Below are positions 1-23,299 of a DNA stretch of 64,000 nt, in pieces. Within the stretch, counting starts at the first letter, position 1; every line of letters starts with the position of its first letter. A program made the position numbers and the translations under genes. This DNA is from a bacterium GBS-1 (GTDB taxonomy: Bacteria > Synergistota > GBS-1): assembly GCA_001443005.1 (NCBI GenBank), contig LEKQ01000001.1, positions 594,542 through 658,541 on the forward strand. The letters run 5' to 3'. The notes under the pieces are model-generated. The model saw nothing but the letters and a program-made list of their open reading frames with translations. It did no database searches and was not told the DNA's origin.

Positions 1-343
1 CAGCATCTGATAGCTTCTTAATCAAGCGAGTTCCGTTAGTTGTAGTTAAAACAGCGCGCTTTCCCTTTATCATATGAGCGTTCTCCATAACATCGGTAGG
101 AGAGTTATCGAAGTCGAACCCAGGTATCTTAGCCCCTCCCCTCTCCCCCATTAGAAGGATATCGGGGTTTTCCCTCTTTAAGGACTTAGCTTCCCTTATA
201 GAAGATGTGATAAAGAGCGAGTCCCCACCATAAGCGAAGAAAGTAACTATAGTGGATGTGGCTCTTATTACATCCAGAGCTATCCATAGAAAATCCTCCT
301 TAGGCAAGGGCTCTGAGAGAGAAGACAAAAGGTAAACCTTCAT
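1..343 (-). CDS. 2-phosphosulfolactate phosphatase (ComB) family protein, N-terminal part; the gene runs off the window
   Basis: My own minus-strand translation from the ATG at 343-341 reads MKVYLLSSLSEPLPKEDFLWIALDVIRATSTIVTFF...LLMGERGGAKIPGFDFDNSPTDV. The DV(I/L)RATST and GER.G..IPGFD..NSP blocks match my recollection of the ComB family. It is absent from the ORF track because the window edge truncates it. It starts 5 nt after the upstream stop, so it is probably in the same operon. Confidence 0.6.
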   Translation of the reverse strand, partial: MKVYLLSSLSEPLPKEDFLWIALDVIRATSTIVTFFAYGGDSLFITSSIREAKSLKRENPDILLMGERGGAKIPGFDFDNSPTDVMENAHMIKGKRAVLTTTNGTRLIKKLSDA

Positions 344-348
344 AAAAC

Positions 349-2013
349 TCAACCCCGCTTAAGGATGGCTCCCTGATCAGCCGAAGTGACTGCTTCAGCG
401 TACCGCGCTAAATATCCCCGGGTTACCCTCGGAGCGGGAGGCTTCCAGTTGGCTAGCCTCCTCTTTATCTCCTCTTCGCTCAGATGCAAATCAAGTTTCC
501 TCTCATCGATATTTATAGTTATGAGGTCCCCATCTTGAACGATAGCGATCGGCCCACCTGAAGCTGCCTCAGGAGAGACATGCCCCACACAGGGACCCCT
601 CGTGGATCCAGAAAACCTCCCATCGGTGACTAAAGCCGTGCTATCCCCTAAGCCCATACCGACGAGAACAGACGTAGCGGCAAGCATCTCTCGCATACCC
701 GGTCCCCCCTTAGGTCCCTCATAGCGTATAACGACTACATCTCCCCTCTGAACCTTGCCATCAAGAATGGCTTGAACTGCATTTTCACAGGACTCGAAAA
801 CCTTAGCTGGACCAGTGTGAACCCTCATGGAGGGCGAAACCGCAGTCTGCTTCACAACTGCACCATTGGGAGCCAGACTTCCCCTTAAAATTGCCAAGCT
901 ACCTTCCTCATGAACAGGGTTATCAAGAGAACGAATTACCTCTCTATTACGGTTTTTGGCTTTCTTCAATATATCCCTAAGAGTGCAAAGCATAACGCTC
1001 CTCTCATCTAAATGAAGTAGGGGAGAAAGCTCCTTCATAACAGCAGGAATCCCACCGGCATCATCCAGATCCTTAAGGGTATATGGACCAGAAGGCTTCA
1101 AATCAACCAAGTGCGGCGTAGTCCTACTTACCCTATCGAAGTCATCCAGTGTTATCCTTATGCCTATCTCATGGGCTATAGCGGGGATGTGAAGCAAAGC
1201 GTTGCTTGAACCTCCCACAGCCACAACCACTCGCATGGCATTCTCAAAGGATCTGTCTGTTATTATATCGGAAGGTTTAACACCTCTCTCTATGAGCCTC
1301 ATAACCTGAATCCCCGAAAGCTTGGCTTCCCTAAGCTTTTTAGAATATACAGCGTGAGTTGTCGCACAGCCCGGCAAAGTCAAGCCCAGGCTTTCAGCCA
1401 CACATGACATGGTGTTCGCAGTCCCCATCATGGAACATGAGCCTACAACAGGGCATATGCAATCCTCCATTTCCCTAAACTCCTCTTCTGTCAACAATCC
1501 ACGCCTATAAAGTCCCACAGCCTCCCTTATCTCATAGACAGCTAAGCTTCTACCCTTAAAAACCCCCGGGAGCATCGGTCCACCAGTAACCATGATAGAT
1601 GGAACGTTTATCCTTAACATCGCCATAAGCATACCAGGAACTATCTTATCACAGGCGGCTAAGAAGACCAAGCCATCTAACTGCTCCGCCTGAGCCACGA
1701 GCTCTATGGAATCAGCTATCACCTCTCTACTGGGTAGAACATAACACATTCCCTGATGCCCCTGGGCTATACCATCGCATATGGCGATGGTGTTAAACTC
1801 AAAGGGCACGCCCCCAGCCAACCTTATGCCCTCCTTAACCGCCTCAGCGATCTGGCGAAAATGCTTATGCCCGGGGTGCATCTCATTCCAAGAGTTCACA
1901 ACACCAACGAAAGGACGGTTGAATTCCTCATCGATCAACCCACAAGCTTTAAGAAGGGCACGCATACCAGCCCTATCTATACCCTCCACAACAACTCGAC
2001 TGCGCAATCCCAC
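349..2013 (-). CDS. IlvD/Edd-family Fe-S dehydratase no. 1 (sugar-acid or dihydroxy-acid dehydratase; substrate unknown)
   Basis: Blocks [44 protein letters not shown] and TDGRFSGST are present, and the three cluster cysteines are intact. The ORF-track ATG at 2094 overlaps the upstream gene by 49 nt and adds about 27 aa beyond where the in-window paralogue begins. An in-frame GTG at 2013 (or 2025), downstream of AGGGAGG at 2026-2032, is the more likely start. Confidence 0.88.
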
Positions 2014-2045
2014 GGCTTCATTCACCCTCCCTAAAAACAAAGGAA

Positions 2046-3329
2046 TCAGGGCTCCAAGACCGGAATGGTAATCAAGGCATTGGGTACAACCCAAACTTTA
2101 GCATCCTTGCCGAGCTCAAAGAACGCTCGCTCCAGCGCCTCTTCAACAGTAGGCTCGTACTCTAGAAATAGCTCCCTTAAGATAGGCTCTGGAACAGCTG
2201 TCCCAACCATAAAGATCTTAGCCCAGTTTAAGGCCTTAGCCAGAACGAAGGCCTTGTGCTCCCCCGGTTCAAATCCCTCGCGATAAGCCCTCTCTAAAGC
2301 TTCCACAGGTGACCTTACGCTTTTCATCCAGTTATAGTACCCCTCATGCCCTATACCATCCTCACACGCCGCAGGGATTATTATTATCCCCCCCTTTCTG
2401 ACCAAAGGACGAGGTGCAAATATCAGGTTATTAACCGCCCTGGTCGCCTGATATAGGTCCCTGTCCTTAGGATATCTGGGTATCGCTATGATAATATCCC
2501 CCTGCTGACTAGCTTTAACCTCATAAATCTCTTTCGCAAACCTCACGCCCGCATCGTGAGCTTTCACCGGATCACCAGCGAACACCCCAAGAAGGCGCTT
2601 ATCGTCATCGAGCACCACGTTAACTATGAAGTCAAGGCCAAGAAAGCCAGCCGCTTCCTCAAGAAAACGTCTAAAGAGGTTATCCTCGATCACACCCAAT
2701 CTGGTCTTAGGATGATCCAGCATGGCGATATTGTGCGTAGCAGAAATCGTGCGAACGCTTGCAACACCAACTGCAACGCTTTTAACCCCACCGCTGTACC
2801 CCGCAAAGAGGTGAGGTTCAATAACACCTGTCGCGATCCTTAAATCAGCCTCTGCTACGCTTTTATTTATCTCCACAGGTATGCCCTGAGATAGGGTGTT
2901 CCCCAAAAACTTAAGCCCCTCAGGGTTAAAGGCATTATGGTTCTCAACCTTGACTCTCCTTACCACCTCTTCACTATACATCTCCTTGAACTCCTCAATA
3001 GAATTGGGCCTGTGAGTACCAGTAGCAACAACTACACTGATATTCTCATCGGGTATCCCAGCTTCGTTAAGCTCCTTCAACAAAAGGGGAATGACTACCT
3101 CCTCACAAGCATATCTGGTTATATCGGTAGCTATGATGACCACCCTCTGCCCAGGCTTGGCTAAATCTCTTAGGGCTTTGCTCCCGATGGGATTTCTTAA
3201 GGCATCCTCAAAGGCAGAAACCACATCCTTAACCGGTGGGTACCTCTTCGGGTCAAGAACCCCCAAAAAATTCCTCTCAGGGATATTAAGCCTAAGAACA
3301 CTCCCCCTTAGGGGAATCTCGACTATCAA
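2046..3329 (-). CDS. LarA-like nickel-pincer (NPN) dependent 2-hydroxyacid racemase/epimerase homologue (DUF2088 family)
   Basis: 427 aa, the same size as lactate racemase LarA. The blocks [26 protein letters not shown] (the Lys corresponds to the NPN-tethering Lys of LarA) and SATHN are present where I remember the LarA catalytic His/Lys residues. Confidence 0.8.
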
Positions 3330-3358
3330 ATTAGATCAACCTGCCTTTCAGAGTACAA

Positions 3359-4417
3359 TCACATCCCCACAAGCTTTTTTGCCTCCTCTAAGGCCCTTAA
3401 GGCTCCTTCACCTAATGGTACGCCCTCCTTAAGCCTCTTGCACATGGTCCGATAGCTTCTCTCCCCCGGCAGAAGGATCTCATCCACGCCCTTAGCTCTC
3501 TTAGATCCCTTTATCATCTTTATGTATCCATCCACCTTTTCCTTGAACTCGTCAACCGGCATGAAGCTTTCGACTTTAATAGCCACCATAAAATTACCGA
3601 CGCCCATCGGCTTAGTAAAGTCCAAGAACATGGATTTTATATCTTTACCGTAAGAGGAACCAGTTAAGAGGCCACTTATTATGTCTATCACAATTGACAT
3701 CCCATATCCCTTGGCTCCCCCTAAGGGCAAAAGGGCTCCTTCTAGAGCCTTCTCCGGATCATCCGTGTGGTTTCCTTCATTATCCACAGCCCAACCGAAG
3801 GGGATTTTTTCACCCTTTCTTAAGCTCTCCTCTATCTTCCCTCTGGAAACAACGCTCGTTGACATATCCAAAACGATCGGTATCTCCCTACCTGCTGGTA
3901 TAGCAACTGCAAAGGGGTTCGTCCCTAGTACAGGCTCACAACCACCATGGGGAGCCATTAAAGCAGCTGTGTTAGTTAGAACGATGCCTATCATGTTTTC
4001 TCTCAGGGGCATCATCGCATAGTGACCCGCAATACCGATGTGATTCGTATTTCTAACGCCAGCGATAGCAACATCATTCTCCTTAGCCTTTTCTATACAC
4101 ATGGACATGGCCAGCTTTCCCGCAACCTGGCCAAGGCCATTATCTGCATCGATCAAGATAACGTTTCTTGATTCCCTTATAACCTTTATATTGGGTTTTG
4201 GATTTATAATCCCAAGCCTTATCCTCTTTACATAGGTGGGAAACCTAACTACACCGTGCGATTCTATTCCTCTTAAATCCGCTGCGACTATAGCCTCAGC
4301 TGTGTCAAGCGCATCCTGCTCTGGCACGCTCAAGCGCATCAGTACAGAGGAAAGGATCCCAATTAAATCCTCGTAAGGAACCAAAACCAAGGGAGCGAAA
4401 CCCTCCTTTAGGTTCAC
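3359..4417 (-). CDS. Ldh_2-family (malate/L-lactate/sulfolactate dehydrogenase type 2) oxidoreductase
   Basis: 352 aa with ADLRGIESHGVVRFPTYVKRI and NTNHIGIAGHYA blocks typical of the Ldh_2 family. That family includes ComC (R)-sulfolactate dehydrogenase, AllD and DlgD. Its start overlaps the upstream stop by 4 nt. Confidence 0.8.
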   Translation of the reverse strand: MNLKEGFAPLVLVPYEDLIGILSSVLMRLSVPEQDALDTAEAIVAADLRGIESHGVVRFPTYVKRIRLGIINPKPNIKVIRESRNVILIDADNGLGQVAGKLAMSMCIEKAKENDVAIAGVRNTNHIGIAGHYAMMPLRENMIGIVLTNTAALMAPHGGCEPVLGTNPFAVAIPAGREIPIVLDMSTSVVSRGKIEESLRKGEKIPFGWAVDNEGNHTDDPEKALEGALLPLGGAKGYGMSIVIDIISGLLTGSSYGKDIKSMFLDFTKPMGVGNFMVAIKVESFMPVDEFKEKVDGYIKMIKGSKRAKGVDEILLPGERSYRTMCKRLKEGVPLGEGALRALEEAKKLVGM

Positions 4418-5571
4418 ATCGTCGGACCTATTCTGGTTATCGCGAACTCACCATGACCAAGCTGCTCTGACTTAGTCATCTTTCCATTTATCACAGAAAG
4501 CATTTCCTTTATGATTCTGCGCCCAACCTCTTCAACCGTTTCGATCCCCAGTATTATAGTTCCTGCATTGATATCTATGTTATCGGACATCCTCTCCCAA
4601 GTCTTGGGATTACCAGTAATCTTTATAACCGGAGCAATGGGGCAACCAACGGGTGTTCCCCTTCCCGTGGAAAAGAGAACCAATTGAGCTCCACCTGCCA
4701 CCATGCCGCTCACCGACTGAACATCATGCCCTGGCGTATCCATTATCCACAGCCCTTTGCCCTTAGGCTGCTCCGCATATTCAACCACGCCTTGAATTGG
4801 AGACCTCCCAGCCTTAAGGATGCAACCAAGGGATTTTTCCTCTATCGTCGTTATACCACCTTCAATGTTGCCTCTCGTCGGCTGAGTCCCTCTTAAATCG
4901 ACGCCCATCTTCAAAGCGTCCTCTTCAGCTCTCTTTACGATCTCGTATATACGCTTAGCTACATCTTCGTTAACCGCTCGCTTGGCCAATATGTGCTCCG
5001 CCCCTATAAACTCGGGGGTCTCCGATAATATCGACGTTCCACCCGAGCTAACCACGAAGTCCGAAGCAACTCCCATGGCAGGGTTCGCCGCTATCCCAGA
5101 GGTGGCATCCGAACCACCGCACTCAAGAGCAATCACGATATGGGATAGATCTATGACCTCCCTCACCATCCCAGACAGATCCGAAAGCATGCTCTCAGCT
5201 ATGGCTATCCCCTTATCTATAGCCCTTAAGGTTCCACCTTCTTCCTGAATCACCAGGACCTCGACCTTCTTCCCCGACTCCGATATCCTCTCAGCCAACA
5301 TATAGGGATCGAGCTTCTCGCATCCGAGCCCAACCACCAGAACCGAAGCCACGTTGGGATTCTTACCAACCCCAACAAGGGTCCTCAGGGTTTGCTCATA
5401 GTCAACGCCAAGCTGTCCACATCCCTCATTATGAGTTATAGACACGCTTCCAGGAACACTCTTCGATATGGCTAAGACCACCTCATTGCTACAGACAACG
5501 CTCGAAAGTACAAGAAGGTGGTTTCTAATCCCAACTGAACCATCGGGCCTTATATAACCCCATAGTTTCAT
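4414..5571 (-). CDS. UxaA-family lyase/dehydratase, large (C-terminal-domain) subunit
   Basis: 385 aa. The THNEGCGQ block and overall layout match the C-terminal part of altronate/galactarate dehydratase. The same layout is found in SuyB of sulfolactate sulfo-lyase. It overlaps the small-subunit gene by 4 nt. Confidence 0.78.
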   Translation of the reverse strand: MKLWGYIRPDGSVGIRNHLLVLSSVVCSNEVVLAISKSVPGSVSITHNEGCGQLGVDYEQTLRTLVGVGKNPNVASVLVVGLGCEKLDPYMLAERISESGKKVEVLVIQEEGGTLRAIDKGIAIAESMLSDLSGMVREVIDLSHIVIALECGGSDATSGIAANPAMGVASDFVVSSGGTSILSETPEFIGAEHILAKRAVNEDVAKRIYEIVKRAEEDALKMGVDLRGTQPTRGNIEGGITTIEEKSLGCILKAGRSPIQGVVEYAEQPKGKGLWIMDTPGHDVQSVSGMVAGGAQLVLFSTGRGTPVGCPIAPVIKITGNPKTWERMSDNIDINAGTIILGIETVEEVGRRIIKEMLSVINGKMTKSEQLGHGEFAITRIGPTM

Positions 5572-5876
5572 CTCCCACCACCCTCTCCCTTAAGCAAGTC
5601 GCCTCTTCCCCTATTACTCACAACGTTATGAACATGCACCCAATCCCCAACCTCGATATCTCGCGTAGCCCTACCTATAACCTCACCGTACTTTATGACA
5701 TCGCCATCCTTTGGAATCCTCCTAACGGCAAACTTATGGCCAAAGGGTATGTCCGCGATCACCCTTACCTCCCTAGACTGGTTAGAGATTCTCACTAACG
5801 CTATCTCACCAGCTTGAATGTCTTCAAGAGCTGTAGCCACGTTATCTGCCCCATCAAGTAAAAGAGCCCTTTTCAT
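5568..5876 (-). CDS. UxaA-family small subunit (SAF / N-terminal domain)
   Basis: 102 aa. The DNVATALEDIQAGE...GHKFAVRRIPKGD.IKYGE pattern is typical of the SAF domain that forms the N-terminus of UxaA/GarD, or the separate SuyA subunit. Confidence 0.75.
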   Translation of the reverse strand: MKRALLLDGADNVATALEDIQAGEIALVRISNQSREVRVIADIPFGHKFAVRRIPKDGDVIKYGEVIGRATRDIEVGDWVHVHNVVSNRGRGDLLKGEGGGR

Positions 5877-5891
5877 AAATCAATCACCTTC

Positions 5892-7775
5892 CTATAAAAG
5901 CCAGTCTAACCCTAGCTCGATAAGCTTCCAAGGTTGGGGAACGCCCTCTTCATCCCAACCAGACATAAGGTAATAAATCCTCTTGGCCTCCTCGAACTCC
6001 TCCCTAGTAACGAATCTACCCTCATGGATACCCCCTCGGAGAGGCATGTACATCTTTTCTGCCAATCTATCCTCCTTCGAATCCACTCCACTTCTAACGT
6101 TAAACACCCTCATCATGTTCAGTCTTCTTTCCCCAACCTTCATGAGCTCCCATAGGCTCACTTCCCAACCGGTCACCGCGCTAACGGCTTCGACCACCTC
6201 ACTGTAGTTTAAACCCCTTGTAGGAGCCATGCAAAACATGCATATATCGAGGGAGTTCAACATGCTATAAGCTATCATAGTGTAATAGGCGAACCTAACT
6301 TTTCTACCATCAAGATCGAACCAAGGTAATCTCTCATTGATACCCAAGATAGCTATTCTTTCAAGGTTAACGTCTGGAGCGTCAGGACCTATGCTTGGAT
6401 CATGTTCACTCGCCATGTGATCCGCTCCTATAGGACAAACAGAATAGACCAAAGCAAGGGACCTTTTAACCCTCGGCTCATGAGCGGGATACTCAACCCC
6501 TTTGCATTCAACGGCATACCTCTCCGCGTTTCTCCCTATAGCTTGAGCAGCCCTCCTCGACCCTTCAGCCAGAAGTCTCCCTATACCCTCTTTCTTAACT
6601 ATCTTCTCAATAAGGGGTATTACCACATCCTTGTTACCAAACCTCAACTCAAGCCCATCGGTCTCTTCCTCAGTTAATATTCCGTTCTCATAGCAATCCA
6701 TTGCAAAAGCTATAGTTCCTCCCAGGGATATAGTGTCTATGGTGTACTTATTGCAGAGCTCTATAGCCTTAGAGACGATATAGGGGTCATCCACCCCTAT
6801 GTAGGAACCTAAAGCAGCCATAGATTCATACTCCAGGCTGGTGTACTCTTGATCTATCTCAAATGGTTCTCTCGCTCCAACCAACCTCTTACATCTTACA
6901 GGACAAGCATAACACCCGGTCTTTTTCACATCCATTATGGTCTCTATGAAGTCACCTGCAATCTTATCCACACCATCAAATACCCCGCTTCTCCAGTTAA
7001 AGGTGGGTAGCTGCCCACCTGTGCTGAAGAGCTTGGTGGTTATGGTTGTCCCCCACTGGTGCAATCTAAGCTGACCTGGGTAGCTCTTAAACCTGGAAGC
7101 AAAATCCTTGGCTATCTTTACCAACTTACCTTCATCCTTAAACTGGGGTTTTCTCGTCCCCTTAACCACAATAGCCTTCAGCTTTTTAGAACCCATAACT
7201 GCTCCAAGTCCGCATCTACCATGCATATCATGAATATCACAAGCTATGCTTGCAAACCTAACGAGGTTCTCCCCACCTGGGCCTATTCCAAGAATCCTCA
7301 AGCCCCTTTCTCCTAACTCTTTCTCAACCTCTCTAAGAACATCTGCGTTGTGCTTCCCCCAAAGATGCGAAGCATCTTTGATCTCCACATTTCCATCCTT
7401 AACCCAAAGATAAACGGGTTTTGAAGCCCTTCCTTTAACCACTATCGCGTCCAATCCCGCAGACTTTAAGGCCACACCCCAAAATCCACCGGCCTCGCTA
7501 TCAGCTATACCACCGGTCAACGGAGAGACTGAAACAGCCGAATGCCTTGCGAACCCCGGTAAGGGAGCACCCGTCACCACGCTGGGAGCGAAAACTATCA
7601 CGTTCTCAGGAGAATAGGCATCCGTTCCAGGTTTAACGTACTTCAATACATAATAACTTCCAAGACATCCCCCACCTATATATTTCCTGAAAAAGGCCTC
7701 TCCCGGACTCTCATATTCAACCGCCATATTAGAGAGATCCACATGGGCTATCCTATCCCAAAAGCCATATCCCAC
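5892..7775 (-). CDS. aor: tungsten-type aldehyde:ferredoxin oxidoreductase (AOR family)
   Basis: 627 aa. The N-terminus GYGFWDRIAHVDLS...KYIGGGCLGSYY resembles the AOR N-terminal domain, and GCYACPVRCKR is the [4Fe-4S] Cys motif. The start is a GTG 6 nt behind AAAGGGGTGA. Confidence 0.9.
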   Translation of the reverse strand: MGYGFWDRIAHVDLSNMAVEYESPGEAFFRKYIGGGCLGSYYVLKYVKPGTDAYSPENVIVFAPSVVTGAPLPGFARHSAVSVSPLTGGIADSEAGGFWGVALKSAGLDAIVVKGRASKPVYLWVKDGNVEIKDASHLWGKHNADVLREVEKELGERGLRILGIGPGGENLVRFASIACDIHDMHGRCGLGAVMGSKKLKAIVVKGTRKPQFKDEGKLVKIAKDFASRFKSYPGQLRLHQWGTTITTKLFSTGGQLPTFNWRSGVFDGVDKIAGDFIETIMDVKKTGCYACPVRCKRLVGAREPFEIDQEYTSLEYESMAALGSYIGVDDPYIVSKAIELCNKYTIDTISLGGTIAFAMDCYENGILTEEETDGLELRFGNKDVVIPLIEKIVKKEGIGRLLAEGSRRAAQAIGRNAERYAVECKGVEYPAHEPRVKRSLALVYSVCPIGADHMASEHDPSIGPDAPDVNLERIAILGINERLPWFDLDGRKVRFAYYTMIAYSMLNSLDICMFCMAPTRGLNYSEVVEAVSAVTGWEVSLWELMKVGERRLNMMRVFNVRSGVDSKEDRLAEKMYMPLRGGIHEGRFVTREEFEEAKRIYYLMSGWDEEGVPQPWKLIELGLDWLL

Positions 7776-8812: not shown

Positions 8813-8839
8813 GATACCCCACCTCACGTAAAGGCAGTC

Positions 8840-10860: not shown

Positions 10861-10870
10861 CTCTCTTCCC

Positions 10871-13803: not shown

Positions 13804-13825
13804 CTCCTCCATTTCCTCCAAATAA

Positions 13826-13863
13826 ATTATACTCAGTATACTGTCTACTTCCTAAATCATCAA
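13826..13863 (-). promoter_or_regulatory. candidate internal sigma-70 promoter upstream of the ThiS-like/OFOR genes
   Basis: Read on the minus strand: TTGATG (13863-13858), a 17-nt spacer, then TATACT (13840-13835), followed by a second TATAAT (13831-13826) and GGAGG. It lies in the 75-nt gap after dehydratase no. 2. Confidence 0.35.
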
Positions 13864-16498: not shown

Positions 16499-18028
16499 TC
16501 ATCCCATTGTCTCTTGCAACTCGCTAATCTCCCTAAACTCATCCTGCAGCTTATGATAAATCTTCCAATATATCCTATATAACCTCTCGTATAAAACCCT
16601 TAGCCGCTCATCAGGCTCGATGCAATCGACTAACTGGACGGCCTTGGGAAGGATATCCTCATAGCTTTTTATATACCCAACGCCCCTCATGGCCATAACC
16701 GCTGCACCGAAAGAGGAAGCCTCCTCCATATTAACCCTAACTATTGATCTCCCAAGAACGCTTGATAGAACACCCGCCCAAACTTTAGACCTCATCAAAC
16801 CACCGGTTCCCCTAAGCTCTGTAGGGACGCTAACGACCTCTGAGACCGCCTCATATATACTCCTCATTCGAAAGGCTACACCCTCGATTATCGCCCTCGC
16901 TATATGTCTTCTATCATGGTGAAGCGCAAGACCGAACAAAATTCCTCTAACGTCAGCGTTCCAATAGGGGCCTCTCTCGCCGGTTAAAAAGGGCAAAAGC
17001 AAAAGCCCTCCTGCTCCTGGTTTGACCTCCTGAACCCATCTTTCGGCCTCCCTATAGAGGTCTAGGCCCATTTCTTTCAAATCCTCGTAAAAGCCATCGA
17101 TATACCAAGCCATCACAAGCCCAGCGTTGTTTATGGCGCACCCCACAAGCCAGGTATCCTCATCTAATATGTAACACCACGTTCTTCTTTTCTTATCAGT
17201 CATGGGACCCTTAACGGCCATTCTAACCGCACCGCTCGTTCCGATCATTATAGCCATCTTCCCTTCCCCGATTGAGTTGGAACCTAAAGACGATAAAGCA
17301 CCATCTCCAGCACCTATAACGATGGGAGTTCCCTCCCTTAAACTGGTTATGAGGCTAACTTCCTTAGAGACTTTTCCAACAACGGTTGAGGGGTAAACGG
17401 TCTCGCTCATTTTACCAATACTTATATCGAGGCTATCAAATATGGATTCCTCCCATTTTCTCTTATATATGTTAAGTAAACCGCTACCAGAGGCCACAGA
17501 GATATCGATGGCGAAGACCTTCGCTAAATTCCAAAGAACATACTCCTTTATGGTCATTATCCTATAAGCTTCATCAAGAGCTTGAGGGGTTTCATGCTTA
17601 AACCATATGAGCTTGGCGAGAGGATAGTTCACATGGAGGGGGCAACCTGTAATATCGTAAAGGTAATCAAACCTCTCTCGATAGCTCTTAAGCAGATCGT
17701 TAGACCTATTATCCCCCCAGATAATGAGATTGGTCTTTTTCCTCACATCAGAATCCACTAACATTATGCTGTGAAAAACGCTACTTAAACCTATGGCACC
17801 TATCTCATACTCACCGTTGGCAAGCTCCAAGGATTCCTTTATCGAGCTATATACAGCGGAGACAACCTCGTCAGGATCCTGCTCCACCCAACCAGGCTTA
17901 GGTTGAATAATCCTATAGTTTCTCTTAGCCATCGATATTAATCTTCCATCGCCATCGAAGATACAACATCTCGCCCCGGTTGTTCCTATATCAATACCTA
18001 TGAAAGCCGTCTTAGCCATCATAAACAC
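16499..18028 (-). CDS. FGGY-family carbohydrate kinase (gluconokinase/xylulokinase-like)
   Basis: 509 aa with IGIDIGTTGARC, GWVEQDP and VIGAGDGALSS blocks. The true start may be the fourth Met. Confidence 0.85.
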   Translation of the reverse strand: MFMMAKTAFIGIDIGTTGARCCIFDGDGRLISMAKRNYRIIQPKPGWVEQDPDEVVSAVYSSIKESLELANGEYEIGAIGLSSVFHSIMLVDSDVRKKTNLIIWGDNRSNDLLKSYRERFDYLYDITGCPLHVNYPLAKLIWFKHETPQALDEAYRIMTIKEYVLWNLAKVFAIDISVASGSGLLNIYKRKWEESIFDSLDISIGKMSETVYPSTVVGKVSKEVSLITSLREGTPIVIGAGDGALSSLGSNSIGEGKMAIMIGTSGAVRMAVKGPMTDKKRRTWCYILDEDTWLVGCAINNAGLVMAWYIDGFYEDLKEMGLDLYREAERWVQEVKPGAGGLLLLPFLTGERGPYWNADVRGILFGLALHHDRRHIARAIIEGVAFRMRSIYEAVSEVVSVPTELRGTGGLMRSKVWAGVLSSVLGRSIVRVNMEEASSFGAAVMAMRGVGYIKSYEDILPKAVQLVDCIEPDERLRVLYERLYRIYWKIYHKLQDEFREISELQETMG

Positions 18029-18043: not shown

Positions 18044-18802
18044 TCAAACTGCCGTCCAGCCTCCGTCCACGAAGATTATCTGACCTGTGATATAAGAAGC
18101 CTCCTTAGAGGCCAAAAAAACCGCAACCCCTTTAAGGTCCTCCAAAGATCCAAACCTACCCAAGGGTATCCTTTTTATCATGCTTTCAAGCCTTTCTCTA
18201 TCGCTGAAGACCGCCTCGGTCATCCTGGTCTTGTACCATCCTGGCGCAATAGCGTTCACCCTTATGCCATACGCCCCCCACTCCTTAGCGAGCGCCTTAG
18301 TTAATGAGCCAACACCGCCCTTTGAAGCAGCATAGGCACATATGTTAGGAACGGTCACCTCAACCACGGTCAAGGAGCAAACGTTGATTATTGAGGGGGA
18401 ATCTGACCTCCTCAGTAATCTAAAAGCCTCCCTACACACGTAAAAGGTCCCAAAGAGATTAACCTCGATTATCTCCCTAAAATCATCGATTGGAAACTCC
18501 TCAGCGGGATACCTCCTATTGATGCCTGCAGCGTTCACAACGACATCAAGCCTACCATAGTTTCTCTCAATATTATCCATTATATTCTTCACTTCATCGT
18601 ATTTCGAGACATCGCATCTTAAGCCCGAAGCTTTAACACCATAGCCTTGACTTATCCTTAGGGCAGTCTCCTTTGCCTCCTCTATGGTCCTGCTAACTAT
18701 CAATACATCGCTTCCCGCCTCGGCGAGCCCCTCAGCGAGAGCCATACCTAATCCCCTTGACCCGCCAGTTACAAGAGAGAGCCTTCCTCTAAGGTTAAAC
18801 AT
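18044..18802 (-). CDS. SDR-family oxidoreductase (gluconate 5-dehydrogenase / KduD-like)
   Basis: 252 aa with TGGSRGLG and the catalytic YAASKGG motif. The N-terminus closely resembles what I recall of the Thermotoga gluconate 5-dehydrogenase. Confidence 0.82.
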   Translation of the reverse strand: MFNLRGRLSLVTGGSRGLGMALAEGLAEAGSDVLIVSRTIEEAKETALRISQGYGVKASGLRCDVSKYDEVKNIMDNIERNYGRLDVVVNAAGINRRYPAEEFPIDDFREIIEVNLFGTFYVCREAFRLLRRSDSPSIINVCSLTVVEVTVPNICAYAASKGGVGSLTKALAKEWGAYGIRVNAIAPGWYKTRMTEAVFSDRERLESMIKRIPLGRFGSLEDLKGVAVFLASKEASYITGQIIFVDGGWTAV

Positions 18803-20276
18803 TTGCCCCCGTTATCCTCCTTCTCCCAAGAATCATTAGCACTATCAATACCCAAAGAATTATACAAATAGGCCTAGTAAAGAAAGGAGTTATGCTTTCA
18901 TTTAACGTCAAAGCCCTTCTTAGGTTCTCATCAGCCATCCTACCCAAAATCAACCCCAGGGTAAATGGAGCGAGAGGATAGCCGTGATTTCTCAGTACGT
19001 AACCTACTAAACCGAAAAGCAAGGTTACGTAGACGTCAAAAATGGAGTGATTCACAGCGTAGGCACCTATAACGCAGAGAGTTATTACTATAGGCATTAA
19101 GATGTCCTTCTTCACCAGCAACACCTTTATAAGTACGTTGCTTATAAGAAGCCCAAAGATAAGAAGCATAAAGTTAGCCAAAACCTGCATAGCAACGTAA
19201 TCATAGAAAAATTGCGGGGACTCAATGAAGATAAGCGGACCTGGCCTTATCCCGTGCAACAATATGCCTCCCAATAAAACGGCAGCAGCTCCGCTACCAG
19301 GTATGCCAAGAGCTATCATCGGAATCGAAGCTCCACCTATGCATGCGTTATTCGCTACCTCACAAGCGATAACCCCTTCCTTGCTCCCCTTACCTATCAT
19401 CTCCCTTTCCACACCGAGATTTTTGACAGCACCATAGCTTACCCAAGCGGCCACATCTTCACCAACGCCAGGAATAACACCGATCAGAATACCTATTATC
19501 GCAGACCTTATGGTCGTCTTCCAGTATCTAAAAACCTCTACTAAGGGAATACTAACCCTGAGCTTCTTAGGATCAACCACTAACTCCCCCTGTTTCGGCT
19601 CCCTCATCACGCAAAAAACCTCGGTTAAACCGAAAAGGCCTATCAAGGCAGGTATCAGAGATATGCCACTCATCAAATTTAGGCTGCCGAAGGTGAACCT
19701 TGGATAGGTGGTCATGTTATCCATACCTATCATAGCGGTCATAAGACCGAGAAAGCCCGTTATCCACCCCTTTAATTGCAACTCACCCATAGACAAGCTT
19801 CCACATATCATCACTCCCATTATGGTCAAAACGAAGAACTCCCAGGAACCAAACTTCAGGGCTATCTTAGCAAGCAAAGGGGTAGAAACAGCCAAGGCTA
19901 AGACGCCTATTAAACCACCCCAGAAGGAAGCTAAACGAGCAAGCCCTAAAGCTTCCCCAGCCATCCCATTCTTAGCTAATTCGTATCCATCTATAGCGGT
20001 AGCTGCAGCTGAAGGGGTACCAGGGATGTTAAGCAAAATGGCACTATTGGATCCTCCATATATACCACCGCAATAGAGAGCTACGAGCATCGGTATGGCA
20101 TATCGAGGGTCCAGACCATAGGTTATACCACTTAAGAGGGCTATACCCATCGTAGCTGTAAGACCAGGTAAAGCCCCGATTATTACCCCAAGGACAGAAG
20201 ATAGTGACATCAAAGATAGCAGCTTTAAGTCAAGAAGACCAACGAAACCATCAAAAAGCCTTAATAAGCTTTCCAC
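18795..20276 (-). CDS. tctA: tripartite tricarboxylate transporter (TTT) large permease TctA, copy 1
   Basis: 493-aa polytopic membrane protein with GALPGLTATMGIALL and GIPGSGAAAVLLG blocks. Its 3' end overlaps the SDR start by 8 nt. Confidence 0.88.
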   Translation of the reverse strand: MESLLRLFDGFVGLLDLKLLSLMSLSSVLGVIIGALPGLTATMGIALLSGITYGLDPRYAIPMLVALYCGGIYGGSNSAILLNIPGTPSAAATAIDGYELAKNGMAGEALGLARLASFWGGLIGVLALAVSTPLLAKIALKFGSWEFFVLTIMGVMICGSLSMGELQLKGWITGFLGLMTAMIGMDNMTTYPRFTFGSLNLMSGISLIPALIGLFGLTEVFCVMREPKQGELVVDPKKLRVSIPLVEVFRYWKTTIRSAIIGILIGVIPGVGEDVAAWVSYGAVKNLGVEREMIGKGSKEGVIACEVANNACIGGASIPMIALGIPGSGAAAVLLGGILLHGIRPGPLIFIESPQFFYDYVAMQVLANFMLLIFGLLISNVLIKVLLVKKDILMPIVITLCVIGAYAVNHSIFDVYVTLLFGLVGYVLRNHGYPLAPFTLGLILGRMADENLRRALTLNESITPFFTRPICIILWVLIVLMILGRRRITGANV

Positions 20277-20300: not shown

Positions 20301-20783
20301 TTAGGGCAACCTCACTCCAAGTAAATGTCCAAATGAGTACATCAAGCTCAAACTCACCAAAAGAGCGATCCCGATCGCGACGTGTAGCTTGACACTTTTA
20401 AAGTAAAGATAGGACCCAACTAGATAGAGAAAAGTCGCCAAAGTATAGGGTATCTTCCCCAAAAGAGCAACATAGGCGACCGTTAAAGCTATAAAGACGA
20501 CGAGCCTTTGTGTCTTGAGTCTCTCCTCCCTGCTTCCCTCATTTCTCCCCTTTGACTCCGAGAGGCTCCAACCTTTAAGGTTTCTTTTAAAGATAAACAA
20601 GAGGTAAAACATAAGCGCAGCTGAAAGAACCATAAGAATTGCCGATAAAACTGCGGGGGTAAGACCTGGGGAGTCATGAGGGTCTCCAGTAGGCATCTTT
20701 AGGGATTCAAACAAGCCATAAGCACCGATCAGGAAAACGAAAAGGGCAATCGCAAACTCCCACCACCATCTCTTCCTATCCAT
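20301..20783 (-). CDS. tctB: TTT small membrane subunit TctB, copy 1
   Basis: 160 aa with about 4 hydrophobic helices, positioned between tctC and tctA. Confidence 0.7.
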   Translation of the reverse strand: MDRKRWWWEFAIALFVFLIGAYGLFESLKMPTGDPHDSPGLTPAVLSAILMVLSAALMFYLLFIFKRNLKGWSLSESKGRNEGSREERLKTQRLVVFIALTVAYVALLGKIPYTLATFLYLVGSYLYFKSVKLHVAIGIALLVSLSLMYSFGHLLGVRLP

Positions 20784-20813
20784 CCTGAACTAAATCGCCT
20801 CCCCCTTAAAACA

Positions 20814-20845
20814 GTGCATGGCAGGAGGAAGAACCTGCCATGCAC
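20814..20845 (-). terminator. intercistronic GC-rich stem-loop between tctC1 and tctB1 (partial terminator or mRNA stabiliser)
   Basis: A perfect 12-bp stem, GTGCATGGCAGG / CCTGCCATGCAC, with an 8-nt loop, 24 nt after the tctC1 stop. On the minus strand it is followed by TGTTTTAAG. Confidence 0.5.
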
Positions 20846-20869
20846 CCATCTCTATCTAAGGGTCCAAAC

Positions 20870-21877
20870 TTACTCCGGCTTAGGAATCTTGAAATCCTCA
20901 GGAGATTTCTTCGCAAGCTTCAACTCATGTAAGAGCCAGCTAACCAAAGATGTCTCTCTCTTAGCGTACTCCTCAGACTTCTGCCTATCATAGCCAAGAT
21001 AAACCATGGCCTGCTTCTGTACGAACTCCTTGAACTTAGGAGACTGAACGGCCTTAGCGTATGCCTTATCTATCGCATCTACAACCTCTTGAGGAACATC
21101 CCTAGGAACTGCTATGCCCCACCAACCACCGAAAGGTAGATATTTCTTAATATCAGGAGCCCACTTCGCCACAGTGGGAACCTTACCTACGCCCTCTATC
21201 TCAATATCCTCGTCATTGAACGTCGCAAGGATCCTAAGCTGGCCACCCTTTATCAAATCTATGGCCTCCATTAAGCCTGGAATTCCCGCTTTCGTCTCCC
21301 CTGCCACAGCCGCGGCAGCAGCCGCACGACCGCTGGGATAAACCACTATCTTAAAGTCCCCTCCAACAGATTTCTTAAGCATCTCCAAAGCTATATGCCA
21401 CCCGTTGGCTATACCAGAGTTAGCAAGGGTTAAGTCCTTCCCCATCTCCTTCATAGCCTTAATGAAATCATCCATGGTCTTTATGGGAGAATCGGGCTTA
21501 ACGCATATGGTCGCTACACCAGCAGCAGCGATCCACATATGAAAGTCCTTATAAGAGAAGGGACCAAGGTCCATCACCTGATACATCCTTATGTTATCTG
21601 AGAGTCCTAACCAAATATAACCATCATGAGGCTGACCCATGACGTAAGCTGTCGCAACAGCTCCAGTGGCCCCAGGCATATTTATGACATTAATAGGAAC
21701 CCCTAGGATCTGCTGCATCTCTGCCGCCAATGCTCTATTGACCTGGTCTGTTGCTCCACCCGCACCGAACTGAACTATAACGGTTATAGGTCTCGTTGGA
21801 TAGGCAGCCCATCCCATACCTGCGAAGACACCCACGAACAAGCCCAACACCGCCAACATAACAAGAGCCTTCTTCAT
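20870..21877 (-). CDS. tctC: TTT periplasmic solute-binding protein TctC (Bug family), copy 1
   Basis: 335 aa with a signal peptide (MKKALVMLAVLGLFVGVFAGMGWA), the FGAGGATD and MPGATGAVA blocks, and the tctCBA gene order. Confidence 0.85.
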   Translation of the reverse strand: MKKALVMLAVLGLFVGVFAGMGWAAYPTRPITVIVQFGAGGATDQVNRALAAEMQQILGVPINVINMPGATGAVATAYVMGQPHDGYIWLGLSDNIRMYQVMDLGPFSYKDFHMWIAAAGVATICVKPDSPIKTMDDFIKAMKEMGKDLTLANSGIANGWHIALEMLKKSVGGDFKIVVYPSGRAAAAAAVAGETKAGIPGLMEAIDLIKGGQLRILATFNDEDIEIEGVGKVPTVAKWAPDIKKYLPFGGWWGIAVPRDVPQEVVDAIDKAYAKAVQSPKFKEFVQKQAMVYLGYDRQKSEEYAKRETSLVSWLLHELKLAKKSPEDFKIPKPE

Positions 21878-21901
21878 CTTTCTTCCCCCCTTTAGATTAA
21901 T

Positions 21902-21919: not shown

Positions 21920-21954
21920 CCTCTTCCTTTTCACATCACCTCCCTCTACGGCTT

Positions 21955-23109
21955 TTACATGGCAGATCTGCATATCTGGATCAGATCTTCCAAGGTAGGA
22001 GTTCTCGGATTAATGGGTATCCCAACGTTACTCATCGCCTCACGACATATATCTTCAATGGCATCCTCTTTGACGCCTACCTCTCTTAGCCCTGCCGGTA
22101 TACCCACATCTCTACACAAAGCCTTTACCGCCTCAACCGCCCTACGTGCAGCCTGAAGCTCCGTAAGACCGGAAACGCTCTCTCCCAACGCTTCAGCTAT
22201 CTTAGCAAACTTAGAAAGGTTGCCAATGAGATTAAACTCCATACCATAGGGTAATAGGATAGCGTTTATCACACCATGAGGCACGTCGAAGTACCCACCC
22301 ATAACAGCTGTGATAGCGTGAATAACGCCCAAGCGCGTATTTGCGAAAGCCAAGGCTGCCATCGTGCTTCCTAAGAGCATGTTATAGCGAGCTTCAATAT
22401 TATCCCCCTTAGCATAGGCAGCCCTCAGATACTTTCCAATAAGATAGATAGCGTGATAGGCAAGCGACTCCGATATAGGCTCAGTTACAACGTTCGTGAA
22501 GGACTCTATAGCGTGAGTTAGAGCATCTAAACCAGTAGCAGCGGTCACGCTTGGCGGCATACTCAAGGTTAGAAGGGGGTCGCAAACCGCAATGTGAGGA
22601 GCGATCTTAGGATTACCTATGCCCATCTTAACTTTCTTCTTGGTATCCTTTATCACCGTCACCCAAGTTATCTCGCTACCTGTGCCAGCCGTAGTAGGAA
22701 CGGCAATGAGAGGAAGTATCCTGTTCTTCGGAGGGTTCTTCCAAAAGTAGGCTATCTCCCCCTCGTTAGTTAAAAGTAGACCGATCGCCTTAGCGGTGTC
22801 TATCGAGCTTCCTCCCCCAATCGCCAATAGGAGATCACACCCAAACTCCCGAGCAACTTTAACTCCCTCCTCGACTATCTCAACCGTCGGATTAGGCTCA
22901 ACTTTAGAGAAAACCTCAGTTCTAAAGCCAGCAATATCCAACTTGGCCTTTATGCCATTTACGATGTTCGTGCACATCAATCCCGGATCCGTAACTATTA
23001 AGACGCTCTTTCCGCCCAGTTCGTTAACCCTGTCTACTATTTTTTCGGCCTCTCCTATCCCAAAATACAACTTAGTCGGAATCTGCCAAACGAAGGGCTT
23101 AACAAACAT
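21955..23109 (-). CDS. iron-containing (group III) alcohol dehydrogenase
   Basis: 384 aa with GGGSSIDTAKAIG, the metal-binding His region LDALTHAIES and VPHGVINA. Confidence 0.88.
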   Translation of the reverse strand: MFVKPFVWQIPTKLYFGIGEAEKIVDRVNELGGKSVLIVTDPGLMCTNIVNGIKAKLDIAGFRTEVFSKVEPNPTVEIVEEGVKVAREFGCDLLLAIGGGSSIDTAKAIGLLLTNEGEIAYFWKNPPKNRILPLIAVPTTAGTGSEITWVTVIKDTKKKVKMGIGNPKIAPHIAVCDPLLTLSMPPSVTAATGLDALTHAIESFTNVVTEPISESLAYHAIYLIGKYLRAAYAKGDNIEARYNMLLGSTMAALAFANTRLGVIHAITAVMGGYFDVPHGVINAILLPYGMEFNLIGNLSKFAKIAEALGESVSGLTELQAARRAVEAVKALCRDVGIPAGLREVGVKEDAIEDICREAMSNVGIPINPRTPTLEDLIQICRSAM

Positions 23110-23209
23110 GCTATCCCCCCTCTATACTTTATTATTGTGATAATATCATCCATCCAAACAAATCTATCCTTATCCGCCAACGGAACAACATTCGCTATTT
23201 CTAAATGAT

Positions 23210-23238
23210 ATCTTAACATAAGCACCCGACAGCGTCAA
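23210..23238 (-). promoter_or_regulatory. candidate sigma-70 promoter for the Fe-ADH-led supra-operon
   Basis: Minus strand: TTGACG (23238-23233), a 17-nt spacer, then TAAGAT (23215-23210). This would give a 5' UTR of about 100 nt before the adh ATG at 23109. Confidence 0.4.
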
Positions 23239-23299
23239 GCCATGTTCGTATACCCAGTATGCTTGGATTAATGGTAATACCTCAACTATTTCGCATATA

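Follow-up and report, generated by a model that had tools for sequence, protein, structure and literature searches.

What is the run of 23 genes at the start of this stretch for, and does it act as one unit? The window, by which the whole analysed stretch of 64,000 nucleotides is meant (contig LEKQ01000001.1 of the Synergistota bacterium GBS-1, positions 594,542 to 658,541), holds 23 open reading frames (ORFs) between positions 1 and 23109, without exception on the minus strand. All were found where the initial annotation had placed them, and every family it named was borne out by Pfam and NCBIfam (Table 1). They encode a tripartite tricarboxylate (TTT) transporter, several dehydratases and dehydrogenases, a homologue of the racemase LarA (LarAH), an aldehyde:ferredoxin oxidoreductase (AOR), a four-subunit 2-oxoacid:ferredoxin oxidoreductase (OFOR) and a SucCD-type ligase. 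The reading favoured here, with a probability of about 0.55, is that the block joins three catabolic modules in a fusion conserved within the lineage, which would serve a ferredoxin-based fermenter in the breakdown of imported acid sugars or hydroxy-(di)carboxylates. As judged from homologous gene orders, these modules are M1, from Fe-ADH to the first IlvD/Edd dehydratase (IlvD1); M2, from a ThiS-type gene to AOR; and M3, from a small SAF-domain gene to the second IlvD/Edd dehydratase (IlvD2). Family calls are Pfam and NCBIfam profile matches, and "cutoff" denotes the curated threshold of an NCBIfam model.

Conservation of gene order carries this reading. The source organism is uncultured; its nearest named relatives are metagenome-assembled genomes (MAGs) filed at NCBI as 'Synergistetes bacterium', and identical proteins occur on metagenome contigs of up to 687 kb. 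Comparison contigs outside the window carry L numbers, among them L006, L007, L008, L012, L025, L026, L033, L037, L040, L042, L074, L117 and L118. On L025, a contig of 131 kb, the genes from Fe-ADH through Ldh_2 stand in the same order at 56–89% amino-acid identity, and on L026 those from TctB through Ldh_2 do so at 53–90%; the order on L037 and further contigs agrees. Upstream of Fe-ADH, L025 differs from the window and carries an aminotransferase and an SDF symporter, so that the start of the block at Fe-ADH, as initially proposed, is conserved where the DNA before it is not.

Still within the lineage, a Synergistetes MAG (L006) carries SucCD-2HADH-AOR-SAF-GD_AH-Ldh_2-[DctPQM TRAP]-LarAH-IlvD2 at 58–85% identity, with a TRAP transporter inside M3. 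Beyond the lineage the block comes apart into its modules. A Clostridia MAG (L033) has SSF-DUF3830-AOR-OFORdabg-SucCD-2HADH, its AOR being 65% identical, and three Bacillota contigs (L007, L012, L008) have TAXI-TRAP-LarAH-SAF-GD_AH-2HADH-IlvD2-OFOR at 50–65% identity. On L008 (10001-12781) the LarA homologue and SAF are fused in one ORF of 542 aa and GD_AH lies in two fragments; this copy of M3 is probably decaying or mis-assembled. A more distant AOR on L074 is again found beside SucCD-OFOR, in a succinate-semialdehyde/GABA-type context. M2 and M3 are thus linked across phyla, and M1 is linked to them only in the Synergistota-like lineage. A scan of genome contigs with a single GD_AH protein gave 13 loci, those from Chloroflexota being orphan genes in uninformative contexts. 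A metagenome scan with an AOR alignment gave mainly AOR paralogues of 43–49% identity in unrelated contexts, the informative loci being L036-L038, L040, L042 and L074. The possibility that the AOR, LarA-like and split-UxaA genes are never co-localised elsewhere can be set aside, since their order recurs in other genomes. The proposed block of 23 genes is thus real and conserved, but it consists of three joined modules, which are found apart outside the lineage.

Strand and spacing, on which the initial annotation had placed weight, do not distinguish the block from its surroundings. The minus strand holds 52 of the 57 ORFs in the window (91%), and given this bias a run of 23 consecutive same-strand ORFs has p ~ 0.12. 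GC skew lies between -0.15 and -0.33 in all but two of the 2-kb windows of 1-64000, and the same-strand run itself exceeds the block, upstream past adh to 29096 and downstream past the window end. Unrelated housekeeping genes further along the window, among them rpoD-dnaG, H+-PPase, PPDK and glyQS, are packed no less tightly. Co-directionality and tight packing are therefore not evidence here, and it is the conservation of gene order that rises above background. The reported gaps of 77 nt (adh-tctC), 86 nt (tctC-tctB) and 75 nt (before ThiS) are exact. Six overlaps and one abutment were recovered as described, using the gene caller's starts on the parent contig, but the initial junction counts sum to 23, whereas 23 genes make 22 junctions. 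As stated earlier, the block has no regulator gene, a DNA-binding domain being found in none of its proteins, and an Rfam search of 1-30000 returned no riboswitch or leader.

Among the intergenic elements, the hairpin in the tctC-tctB gap is real: its 13-bp stem folds at -36.8 kcal/mol (z = -3.7). It is kept in two relatives with other stem sequences (z = -5.2 and -5.8; L025:4748-4840 and L026:130-214), and a U-run follows it 3' in each of the three genomes. A conserved structure with a U-run after tctC is read as typical of excess expression of a binding-protein gene, and the element is probably a partial terminator or a stabiliser that raises binding-protein expression. The adh-tctC gap does hold a perfect 18-nt palindrome, TTCTTAAAGCTTTAAGAA, but the corresponding DNA of L025 lacks it. 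Likewise, the promoter TTGACG-17-TAAGAT proposed upstream of adh is present as a sequence, but such sites are no commoner than in shuffled DNA (22 in the region against 27.6) and the region is not conserved in L025; neither the adh promoter region nor the palindrome showed conservation there. Terminator-like matches in the region are also at shuffle level. The gap before ThiS, which measures 62–75 nt in the window, L025 and L026, holds a promoter-like TTGATG-17-TATACT, and a folding test found no stable or terminator-like structure in it at this M1/M2 boundary. For a single transcription unit, then, the picture is mixed: order is conserved and strand and gaps are at background, but there is a conserved terminator-like hairpin behind tctC and a promoter-like site ahead of ThiS.

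Table 1. Features of the block and of the neighbouring DNA, with the profile evidence for each.
Feature	Position	Strand	Evidence or remark
M1: Fe-ADH, first gene of the conserved block	21955..23109	-	Pfam Fe-ADH + ADH_Fe_C
M1: TTT transporter, TctC	20870..21877	-	Pfam TctC
M1: TTT transporter, TctB	20301..20783	-	Pfam TctB
M1: TTT transporter, TctA	18795..20276	-	Pfam TctA
M1: SDR (short-chain dehydrogenase/reductase) oxidoreductase	18044..18802	-	Pfam adh_short_C2
M1: FGGY sugar or sugar-acid kinase	16499..18028	-	Pfam FGGY_N, FGGY_C
M1: DHDPS/NAL-family Schiff-base enzyme	15589..16479	-	Pfam DHDPS
M1: IlvD/Edd dehydratase 1 (IlvD1)	13897..15552	-	Pfam; 581 bits vs ilvD cutoff 618
M2: ThiS/MoaD-type small sulfur carrier ending Gly-Gly, first gene of M2	13603..13821	-	TIGR01683, 53.7 bits vs cutoff 37.45
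M2: OFOR delta	13370..13597	-	Pfam
M2: OFOR alpha	12228..13373	-	Pfam
M2: OFOR beta	11411..12262	-	Pfam
M2: OFOR gamma	10871..11410	-	Pfam
M2: ADP-forming acyl-CoA ligase, SucC-like	9709..10893	-	NCBIfam
M2: ADP-forming acyl-CoA ligase, SucD-like	8840..9703	-	NCBIfam
M2: D-isomer-specific 2-hydroxyacid dehydrogenase (2HADH), phosphoglycerate dehydrogenase/glyoxylate reductase-like	7811..8827	-	Pfam, NCBIfam, PDB
M2: AOR	5892..7775	-	AFOR_N + AFOR_C, 241 and 375 bits
M3: UxaA/GarD-type dehydratase (heteromeric), SAF small subunit	5568..5876	-	Pfam
M3: UxaA/GarD-type dehydratase (heteromeric), GD_AH large subunit	4414..5571	-	Pfam
M3: Ldh_2-family (malate / L-lactate / sulfolactate-type) dehydrogenase	3359..4417	-	Pfam Ldh_2
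M3: LarAH, 2-hydroxyacid racemase/epimerase dependent on nickel-pincer nucleotide (NPN)	2046..3329	-	Lar_N + LarA_C
M3: IlvD/Edd dehydratase 2 (IlvD2), DHAD-type	349..2094	-	passes TIGR00110, 775 vs 618
2-phosphosulfolactate-phosphatase (ComB)-like gene, 5' part	1..346	-	Pfam 2-ph_phosp; 245 aa complete on parent contig
tctC-tctB gap with hairpin	20784..20869		
Promoter-like site before adh	23210..23238		TTGACG-17-TAAGAT
Promoter-like site before ThiS	13835..13863		TTGATG-17-TATACT
Second TctC/B/A set	23326..26337	-	
157-aa protein	26524..26997	-	
UPF0261 gene	26994..28232	-	
PEP-hydrolase-like gene	28248..29096	-	
TAXI-TRAP transporter	33393..36370	+	

M2 holds the ferredoxin-linked steps. 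The AOR aligns with the Pyrococcus furiosus enzyme 1AOR over residues 3–623 (368 bits); its [4Fe-4S] cysteines Cys288, Cys291, Cys295 and Cys512 (CxxCxxxC ... C) are invariant in 10 orthologues, and orthologues of 65–81% identity have the same gene context. The metal is assumed to be tungsten by analogy with the family; the sequence does not distinguish W from Mo. The 611-aa version of this protein given by the gene caller on the parent contig is probably too short, the 1AOR alignment beginning at residue 3 of the 627-aa ORF. The ThiS-type gene at the head of the module, conserved in L025 and L026, presumably serves pterin-cofactor maturation for AOR, as in other AOR operons, which is to be taken as a lead. 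Alpha of the OFOR passes NF006412 (563 vs 411), and beta (324.8 vs 364), gamma (221.4 vs 235) and delta (56.9 vs 93) match Kor/Oor models best but score under the equivalog cutoffs of these. Against PDB sequences, alpha ranks the P. furiosus 2-ketoacid OFOR (449 bits) above 2-oxoglutarate synthase (295), OGOR (244), pyruvate:ferredoxin oxidoreductase (PFOR, 68) and oxalate oxidoreductase (56). By these matches and the NCBIfam ranking the enzyme belongs to the 2-ketoglutarate:ferredoxin oxidoreductase clade (KGOR/OGOR), far from PFOR, and is nearer to that clade than to the POR, VOR, IOR or OOR types. SucD passes TIGR01019 and NF004230 (377.8 vs 353.2 and 370.2 vs 336), SucC falls under the cutoffs (357.7, just short of 370, and 341.8 vs 375.6), and SucCD adjoins OFOR in the window, L025, L026, L033 and L074. 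The 2HADH accompanies SucCD and AOR in L033 (61%) and SAF-GD_AH in L007 and L012 (50–51%).

M3 centres on a dehydratase of two polypeptides. Its SAF (102 aa) and GD_AH (385 aa) ORFs overlap by 4 nt; the large subunit has the GD_AH_second and GD_AH_C domains, the SAF (beta-clip) domain is on the separate polypeptide, and the match to GarD 6U7L scores 222 bits. All four Fe-ligand cysteines, C27, C51, C84 and C151, are present in the large subunit. Ldh_2 is conserved in L006, L025 and L026 (66–67%), and its top NCBIfam model is L-sulfolactate dehydrogenase, at 329 bits vs a cutoff of 500. LarAH has the two catalytic His and the NPN-binding Arg, Lys and His (equivalents of Arg75, His108, His174, Lys184 and His200), none of which varies among 120 homologues, and its specificity positions read L, F, H, K, which is the H/K signature of malate racemases (MAR). 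LarAH scores under the cutoffs of both malate-racemase NCBIfam families, LarAH6 (400.8 vs 500) and LarAH5 (360.1 vs 462). None of larB, larC and larE was found among the annotated window ORFs, a set that does not include seven ORFs between 55 and 63 kb. Two comparisons led no further: the LarA-like genes beside UxaA-type genes on plasmids of Sporomusa termitida and Pseudosulfitobacter are related to LarAH at family level only, and the characterised LarAH62 could not be tied to a locus of LarA-UxaA type. IlvD2 adjoins LarAH in L006 (85%) and lies within the LarAH-SAF-GD_AH-2HADH-IlvD2-OFOR cluster of L007 (64%). Its longest ORF overlaps LarAH by 49 nt, but the true start is probably ~20-25 codons downstream, a short gap replacing the overlap, as is suggested by the IlvD consensus and by orthologues such as the 558-aa protein of L006. 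No ComB-like gene follows IlvD2 in L006, and membership of this last gene in the unit is doubtful.

M1 is best read, from its profile matches, as an Entner-Doudoroff-type hexonate branch. The top NCBIfam model of the SDR is gluconate 5-dehydrogenase (250 bits vs cutoff 279) and that of the FGGY kinase is gntK_FGGY (389 vs 649), with a homologue of 35% identity in an Entner-Doudoroff-type cluster on L118. The nearest homologue of IlvD1 outside Synergistota, 56% identical, lies inside the same cluster, RpiR-FGGY-Eda-IlvD/Edd-6PGDH. There (L118:2632-7545) the IlvD-type protein comes after the FGGY kinase, is flanked by a KDPG aldolase (Eda) on one side and a short 6-phosphogluconate dehydrogenase on the other, and apparently fills the Edd role. 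The DHDPS-family enzyme scores 156 bits with NanA, 151 with DapA, 150 with KD(P)G aldolase and 78 with KdgD, and its top PDB matches are DapA, NanA, YagE and KDG aldolase; it is more likely an aldolase than a KdgD-type dehydratase, the PDB and NCBIfam rankings not being decisive. It is the four top matches (gluconate 5-dehydrogenase, GntK, IlvD/Edd and NanA/DapA/KD(P)G aldolase) together with the L118 cluster that make the module Entner-Doudoroff-like. At its head, Fe-ADH has the choline and lactaldehyde reductase types as top NCBIfam models, all below cutoff, and is 88% identical to its orthologue at the equal position in L025; TctCBA orthologues are 60–90% identical. Compared with Entner-Doudoroff gluconate clusters that use an IlvD-type dehydratase, such as L118, M1 likewise has consecutive genes for an FGGY kinase, an IlvD/Edd dehydratase (56%) and an aldolase, but its aldolase is of the DHDPS family and not Eda, uptake is by a TTT system, SDR and Fe-ADH are extra and a local regulator is missing.

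In the favoured reading, M1 would take up a hexonate or keto-hexonate through its TTT system, the SDR would adjust a keto group, the FGGY kinase would phosphorylate, IlvD1 would dehydrate to a 2-keto-3-deoxy acid, and the DHDPS-family enzyme would cleave this to pyruvate and a triose or aldehyde. M3 may make all stereoisomers of a second, 2,3-dihydroxy acid usable: LarAH, with its nickel-pincer cofactor and malate-racemase-type pocket, would invert C2 and presumably supply the epimer accepted by each dehydratase, and two unrelated iron-dependent dehydratases, the split UxaA/GarD enzyme and the DHAD-type one, would turn the diol acid into a 2-oxo or 2-keto-3-deoxy acid. The D-specific 2HADH and the L-specific Ldh_2 would trim 2-hydroxy and 2-oxo forms. 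In M2, AOR would oxidise an upstream aldehyde to the acid with ferredoxin, 2-oxoglutarate semialdehyde being the simplest candidate; it would stand in for the NAD(P)-dependent semialdehyde dehydrogenase on which aerobic aldarate and pentonate pathways rely. The OFOR, being KGOR-type, would then convert 2-oxoglutarate to succinyl-CoA, again with ferredoxin, and the SucCD-type ligase would release succinate with formation of ATP. The simplest chain would thus run from acid sugar through 2-keto-3-deoxy acid, 2-oxoglutarate semialdehyde, 2-oxoglutarate and succinyl-CoA to succinate and ATP. Substrates, step directions and any link of M1 to M2 and M3 are parts of this proposal, while the families, catalytic motifs, conserved order and modularity are observed. 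Its specific form through 2-oxoglutarate semialdehyde is tentative, and less probable than the reading as a whole.

Plasmid-borne clusters in other bacteria point to the place that AOR may take. The best plasmid match of the large subunit (55%) is on a Priestia plasmid, in the order IclR-FAH-GucD(KGSADH, 2-oxoglutarate semialdehyde dehydrogenase)-FAH-DHDPS-UxaA small-UxaA large-MFS. A Pseudosulfitobacter plasmid carries 2HADH, an NADP-dependent aldehyde dehydrogenase (ALDH), the IlvD-family AraD, DHDPS, an altronate-dehydratase family gene, a LarA-like gene and LarC, and a Paracoccus plasmid has DHDPS and ALDH beside an altronate-dehydratase family gene. An ALDH is missing from the window and its relatives, and the gene just before the dehydratase encodes AOR. 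By analogy, AOR appears to stand where aerobic clusters of much the same family set have an NAD(P) aldehyde dehydrogenase.

Several points weigh against this proposal. The DHDPS-family protein is closer to aldolases than to KdgD-type dehydratases, and the semialdehyde route is weakened because aldol cleavage would give pyruvate, which is not the expected preference of a KGOR-type OFOR. The specificity for 2-oxoglutarate and succinyl-CoA is itself a best guess, because OFOR beta, gamma and delta and SucC fall below their equivalog cutoffs. The LarAH pocket suggests a C4 dicarboxylate of malate or tartrate type over a C5 or C6 acid sugar; no DHDPS gene occurs in the Bacillota M3 clusters within the DNA available; and IlvD2, which scores above the threshold for housekeeping ilvD, might conceivably be the biosynthetic enzyme. 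M1 may be functionally independent of M2 and M3, and that it is merely adjacent to them is rather improbable. Common descent explains part of the synteny, because the whole block was seen only within one lineage. The acid-sugar and hydroxy-acid classes are named as candidates for the substrate. As for the route first proposed, its logic (import; dehydratases, racemase and dehydrogenases; 2-oxoacid, OFOR, acyl-CoA and ATP, with AOR as second ferredoxin-linked oxidation) is consistent with the data, but one self-contained route is unlikely: modules occur separately with transporters of their own (TRAP in L006, TAXI-TRAP in L007 and L008). The nearest IlvD1 homologue outside Synergistota sits in a complete FGGY-Eda-Edd-like-6PGDH cluster. 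Behind tctC there is the conserved terminator-like hairpin, and the conserved gap ahead of ThiS has its promoter-like site.

The same observations bear on the rival that survives best, namely that there is no pathway-level unit at all. The block would then consist of independent head-to-tail operons (a hexonate Entner-Doudoroff set, an AOR-OFOR-ligase triad for the general fermentation of amino acids or 2-oxoacids as in Thermococcales, and a hydroxy-acid set) in a compact, strand-biased genome, and the shared order would reflect descent. The strand bias of 91% with housekeeping genes packed equally tightly, the separate occurrence of the modules, the TRAP transporter inside M3 of L006, the conserved terminator-like hairpin after tctC, the promoter-like site in the conserved gap before ThiS and the restriction of the whole block to one lineage would all be expected. 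Such a view has to contend with an order that stays the same at 53–90% amino-acid identity, although the window and L025 do not agree in the DNA before Fe-ADH, and with the linkage of M2 and M3 genes in varied orders in three phyla (AOR-OFOR-SucCD-2HADH in L033; GD_AH-2HADH-IlvD2-OFOR in L007; SAF-GD_AH-AOR in L040 and L042). The M1/M2 boundary lacks a terminator-like structure, and tctA and the SDR gene overlap by 8 nt. A mere row of operons is considered unlikely.

A second rival keeps M3 as a pathway but makes it a stereo-convergent one for C4 dicarboxylates, in which LarAH acts on tartrate (D/meso/L) or malate, the dehydratases turn tartrate isomers into oxaloacetate, Ldh_2 and 2HADH interconvert oxaloacetate and malate, and M2 is just a neighbouring 2-oxoacid module. 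In its favour, an H/Q-K pair at the specificity positions is diagnostic of malate racemases, and these act on tartrate as epimerases too; LarAH of the block shares both this signature and the catalytic and NPN residues with LarAH groups 5 and 6 (Mar1 and Mar2; Desguin et al., 2020; Urdiain-Arraiza et al., 2024). Group 5 is 100% associated with COG2721 and in 26% of cases with TctC/TctA (Desguin et al., 2020, Table S1), and such neighbours are found in the block; for Mar1 the malate KM is poor, the native substrate was doubted, and tartrate was suggested (Desguin et al., 2020). TTT and TRAP systems typically carry di- and tricarboxylates, and the Ldh_2 family includes malate dehydrogenases. Nevertheless, LarAH lies below the cutoffs of both MAR families, oxaloacetate is not known as an OFOR substrate, and the block contains no oxaloacetate decarboxylase or fumarate-reductase genes. 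Left unexplained are the KGOR-type OFOR directly after M3 in Bacillota and the fusion of AOR, OFOR and SucCD to M3 in four Synergistota-like lineages. The C4-dicarboxylate pathway is given a low probability, below that of independent operons.

The third rival takes up sulfolactate, one of the substrates proposed initially. A sulfo-Entner-Doudoroff set (SDR, IlvD/Edd, aldolase) would lead to sulfolactaldehyde, AOR would oxidise this to sulfolactate, LarAH or 2HADH/Ldh_2 would racemise it, and a SuyAB-type lyase would give pyruvate and sulfite. The likeness is considerable, as the Pfam set is that of the known module (SlcC, PF00389/PF02826; ComC, PF02615; SuyB, PF04295/PF20629; small SuyA), with the same two-subunit layout of small SAF-like and large GD_AH proteins and a TTT association. 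SDR and PF00920 also match the sulfo-Entner-Doudoroff set, Ldh_2 has L-sulfolactate dehydrogenase as top model, a ComB-like gene ends the block, and the malate-like shape of sulfolactate would fit a malate-racemase-type pocket. A Variovorax plasmid carries the similar layout hydroxyacid DH-SuyA-SuyB-TctC-Ldh family, and in L040 and L042 a SuyAB-type pair has an AOR paralogue (49–53%) as its neighbour, along with a sulfonate-type ABC transporter and exporters. A TTT transporter, SlcHFG, goes with the sulfolactate module in Chromohalobacter salexigens, and Desulfovibrio sp. DF1 has an AOR induced by 2,3-dihydroxypropane-1-sulfonate (DHPS).

Against these resemblances stands the iron site. The four cysteines that form it are conserved throughout UxaA/GarD enzymes except sulfolactate sulfo-lyase (Watanabe, 2019). 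The large subunit of the block and all its orthologues keep them, as do homologues from Priestia, E. albertii, Chloroflexota and Sporomusa loci, whereas L117 (Variovorax), L040, L042 and the tree neighbours L021, L022 and L024 are without three of the four; at these positions L117, L040 and L042 read N/Y, R, gap/R/K and C. A neighbour-joining tree places GD_AH with the Priestia, E. albertii and Chloroflexota homologues and not with L117 or L040, and identities are 54–55% to the Cys-keeping group and 43–45% to the Cys-lacking one. Bona fide SuyB proteins are reported to be >70% identical across phyla, but GD_AH is <=45% identical to any proteobacterial plasmid homologue and 43% to the SlcC/ComC-linked, SuyB-type protein of Variovorax, no validated SuyB being in the comparison. 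No sulfite/sulfate exporter or sulfite reductase was found in the 30 genes of 1-30035 or in 20 further window ORFs, the OFOR is KGOR-type and not PFOR-type, the FGGY kinase and IlvD2 would be without a role, and the ComB-like gene is absent from L006. On the cysteine test, the tree, the identity levels, the missing exporter and the KGOR-type OFOR, the SuyAB/SlcC/ComC assignment was dropped as very improbable. For the same reasons the SAF and GD_AH pair is, as far as homology can tell, a heteromeric acid-sugar dehydratase. In annotation, the cysteine test separates SuyB-type lyases from heteromeric acid-sugar dehydratases, with which they are easily confused.

The two loci just mentioned deserve a remark of their own. 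In L040 (3177-7099) and L042 (2157-5757) an AOR, 53% and 49% identical to that of the block, adjoins a SuyAB-type pair of SAF and GD_AH in which three of the four cysteines are missing. Further genes of L040 encode a PLP enzyme, a cupin, an NMT1-type ABC transporter, Fe-ADH, a Cons_hypoth698 exporter, a Na_sulph_symp transporter and a partial LarA homologue. Such loci are candidates for anaerobic C3-sulfonate metabolism with ferredoxin-linked oxidation of sulfolactaldehyde, which would echo the unexplained DHPS-induced AOR of strain DF1.

Returning to the fusion of three modules, each enzyme family and sub-pathway type in it is already known, and what appears new is their combination, in which AOR would stand in for the NAD(P) aldehyde dehydrogenase of aerobes. 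The literature yielded no description of AOR together with acid-sugar dehydratases, an NPN epimerase, a KGOR-type OFOR and an SCS-type (succinyl-CoA synthetase) ligase, nor anything on AOR with 2-oxoglutarate semialdehyde, a 'sulfolactate racemase', sulfolactate with a nickel-pincer enzyme, or hydroxycitrate catabolism. That the initial annotation did not recognise a described pathway in the combination thus holds for the whole, but two parts of it were known. The association of LarAH, COG2721 and TctC/A was described earlier (Desguin et al., 2020), and heteromeric UxaA/GarD dehydratases had been predicted, including a heteromeric L-fuconate dehydratase with a separate SAF polypeptide (Watanabe, 2019).

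With the oxidative routes for aldarates and the non-phosphorylative ones for pentonates, which lead from a GarD/GudD or IlvD-type dehydratase through a DHDPS-family KdgD or L-KDP dehydratase and 2-oxoglutarate semialdehyde dehydrogenase to 2-oxoglutarate, the block shares UxaA/GarD-type and IlvD/Edd-type dehydratases and a DHDPS-family enzyme. It differs in having AOR beside the dehydratase and no NAD(P) aldehyde dehydrogenase, in a DHDPS member that is not a KdgD orthologue (78 bits vs cutoff 374), in the extra LarA-type epimerase, and in the addition of a KGOR-type OFOR and a SucCD-type ligase, so that succinate and ATP would result. Peptide-fermenting Thermococcales use a triad of AOR, 2-ketoacid:ferredoxin oxidoreductase and ADP-forming acyl-CoA synthetase. 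The same three activities are encoded here, with ferredoxin as sole acceptor and ATP from substrate-level phosphorylation; unlike in the triad, the genes are contiguous and fused to genes for dehydratases, an epimerase, dehydrogenases and a carboxylate transporter, and the ligase is SucCD-type instead of ACS I/II-type.

A bolder version, which is doubtful on present evidence, is that M2 and M3 encode an undescribed, fully ferredoxin-linked and ATP-yielding fermentation of hydroxy-polycarboxylates, with a Ni-pincer epimerase, two Fe dehydratases, a tungsten-type AOR (as 2-oxoglutarate-semialdehyde dehydrogenase, or acting on a uronate or acidic aldehyde), KGOR and SCS. Aldarates or uronates, degraded through 2-oxoglutarate semialdehyde, would be candidate substrates; a more speculative choice is hydroxycitrate isomers, whose dehydration to oxalosuccinate would lead straight to 2-oxoglutarate. 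If true, this would give the first physiological substrates for a bacterial AOR clade and for the COG2721-linked LarA homologues. Most bacterial AORs are without a known physiological substrate, and the repeated position of this clade beside acid-sugar dehydratase and KGOR/SCS genes offers testable candidates in acidic aldehydes such as 2-oxoglutarate semialdehyde. Among LarA homologues, the largest group, which is malate-racemase-like, likewise lacks a known native substrate, chiefly among its COG2721-paired members, and the block provides a pathway context for it. If the favoured reading is right, strict anaerobes run a Weimberg- or aldarate-type pathway in which the oxidative steps proceed without NAD(P) and ATP is gained, which bears on the syntrophic degradation of plant acid sugars in digesters.

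The rest of the window is of a different character. Its 3' two-thirds are housekeeping (coaE, a UvrD-type helicase, glnA, rpoD-dnaG, H+-PPase, PPDK with its regulator, and glyQS), and a TAXI-TRAP transporter lies there on the plus strand. A second complete TctC/B/A set stands upstream of the block, preceded by a UPF0261 gene and a PEP-hydrolase-like gene; in L061 and L062 AOR paralogues also have this pair (57% and 72% identity) nearby, and in L060 there is just the PEP-hydrolase-like gene. Between them and the second transporter lies an ORF of 157 aa that gave no Pfam match. With a signal-peptide-like N-terminus, a body very rich in Trp, Tyr and Asp, and a C-terminal hydrophobic stretch followed by RRFNLRKR, its product looks like a surface protein bearing a sorting signal.

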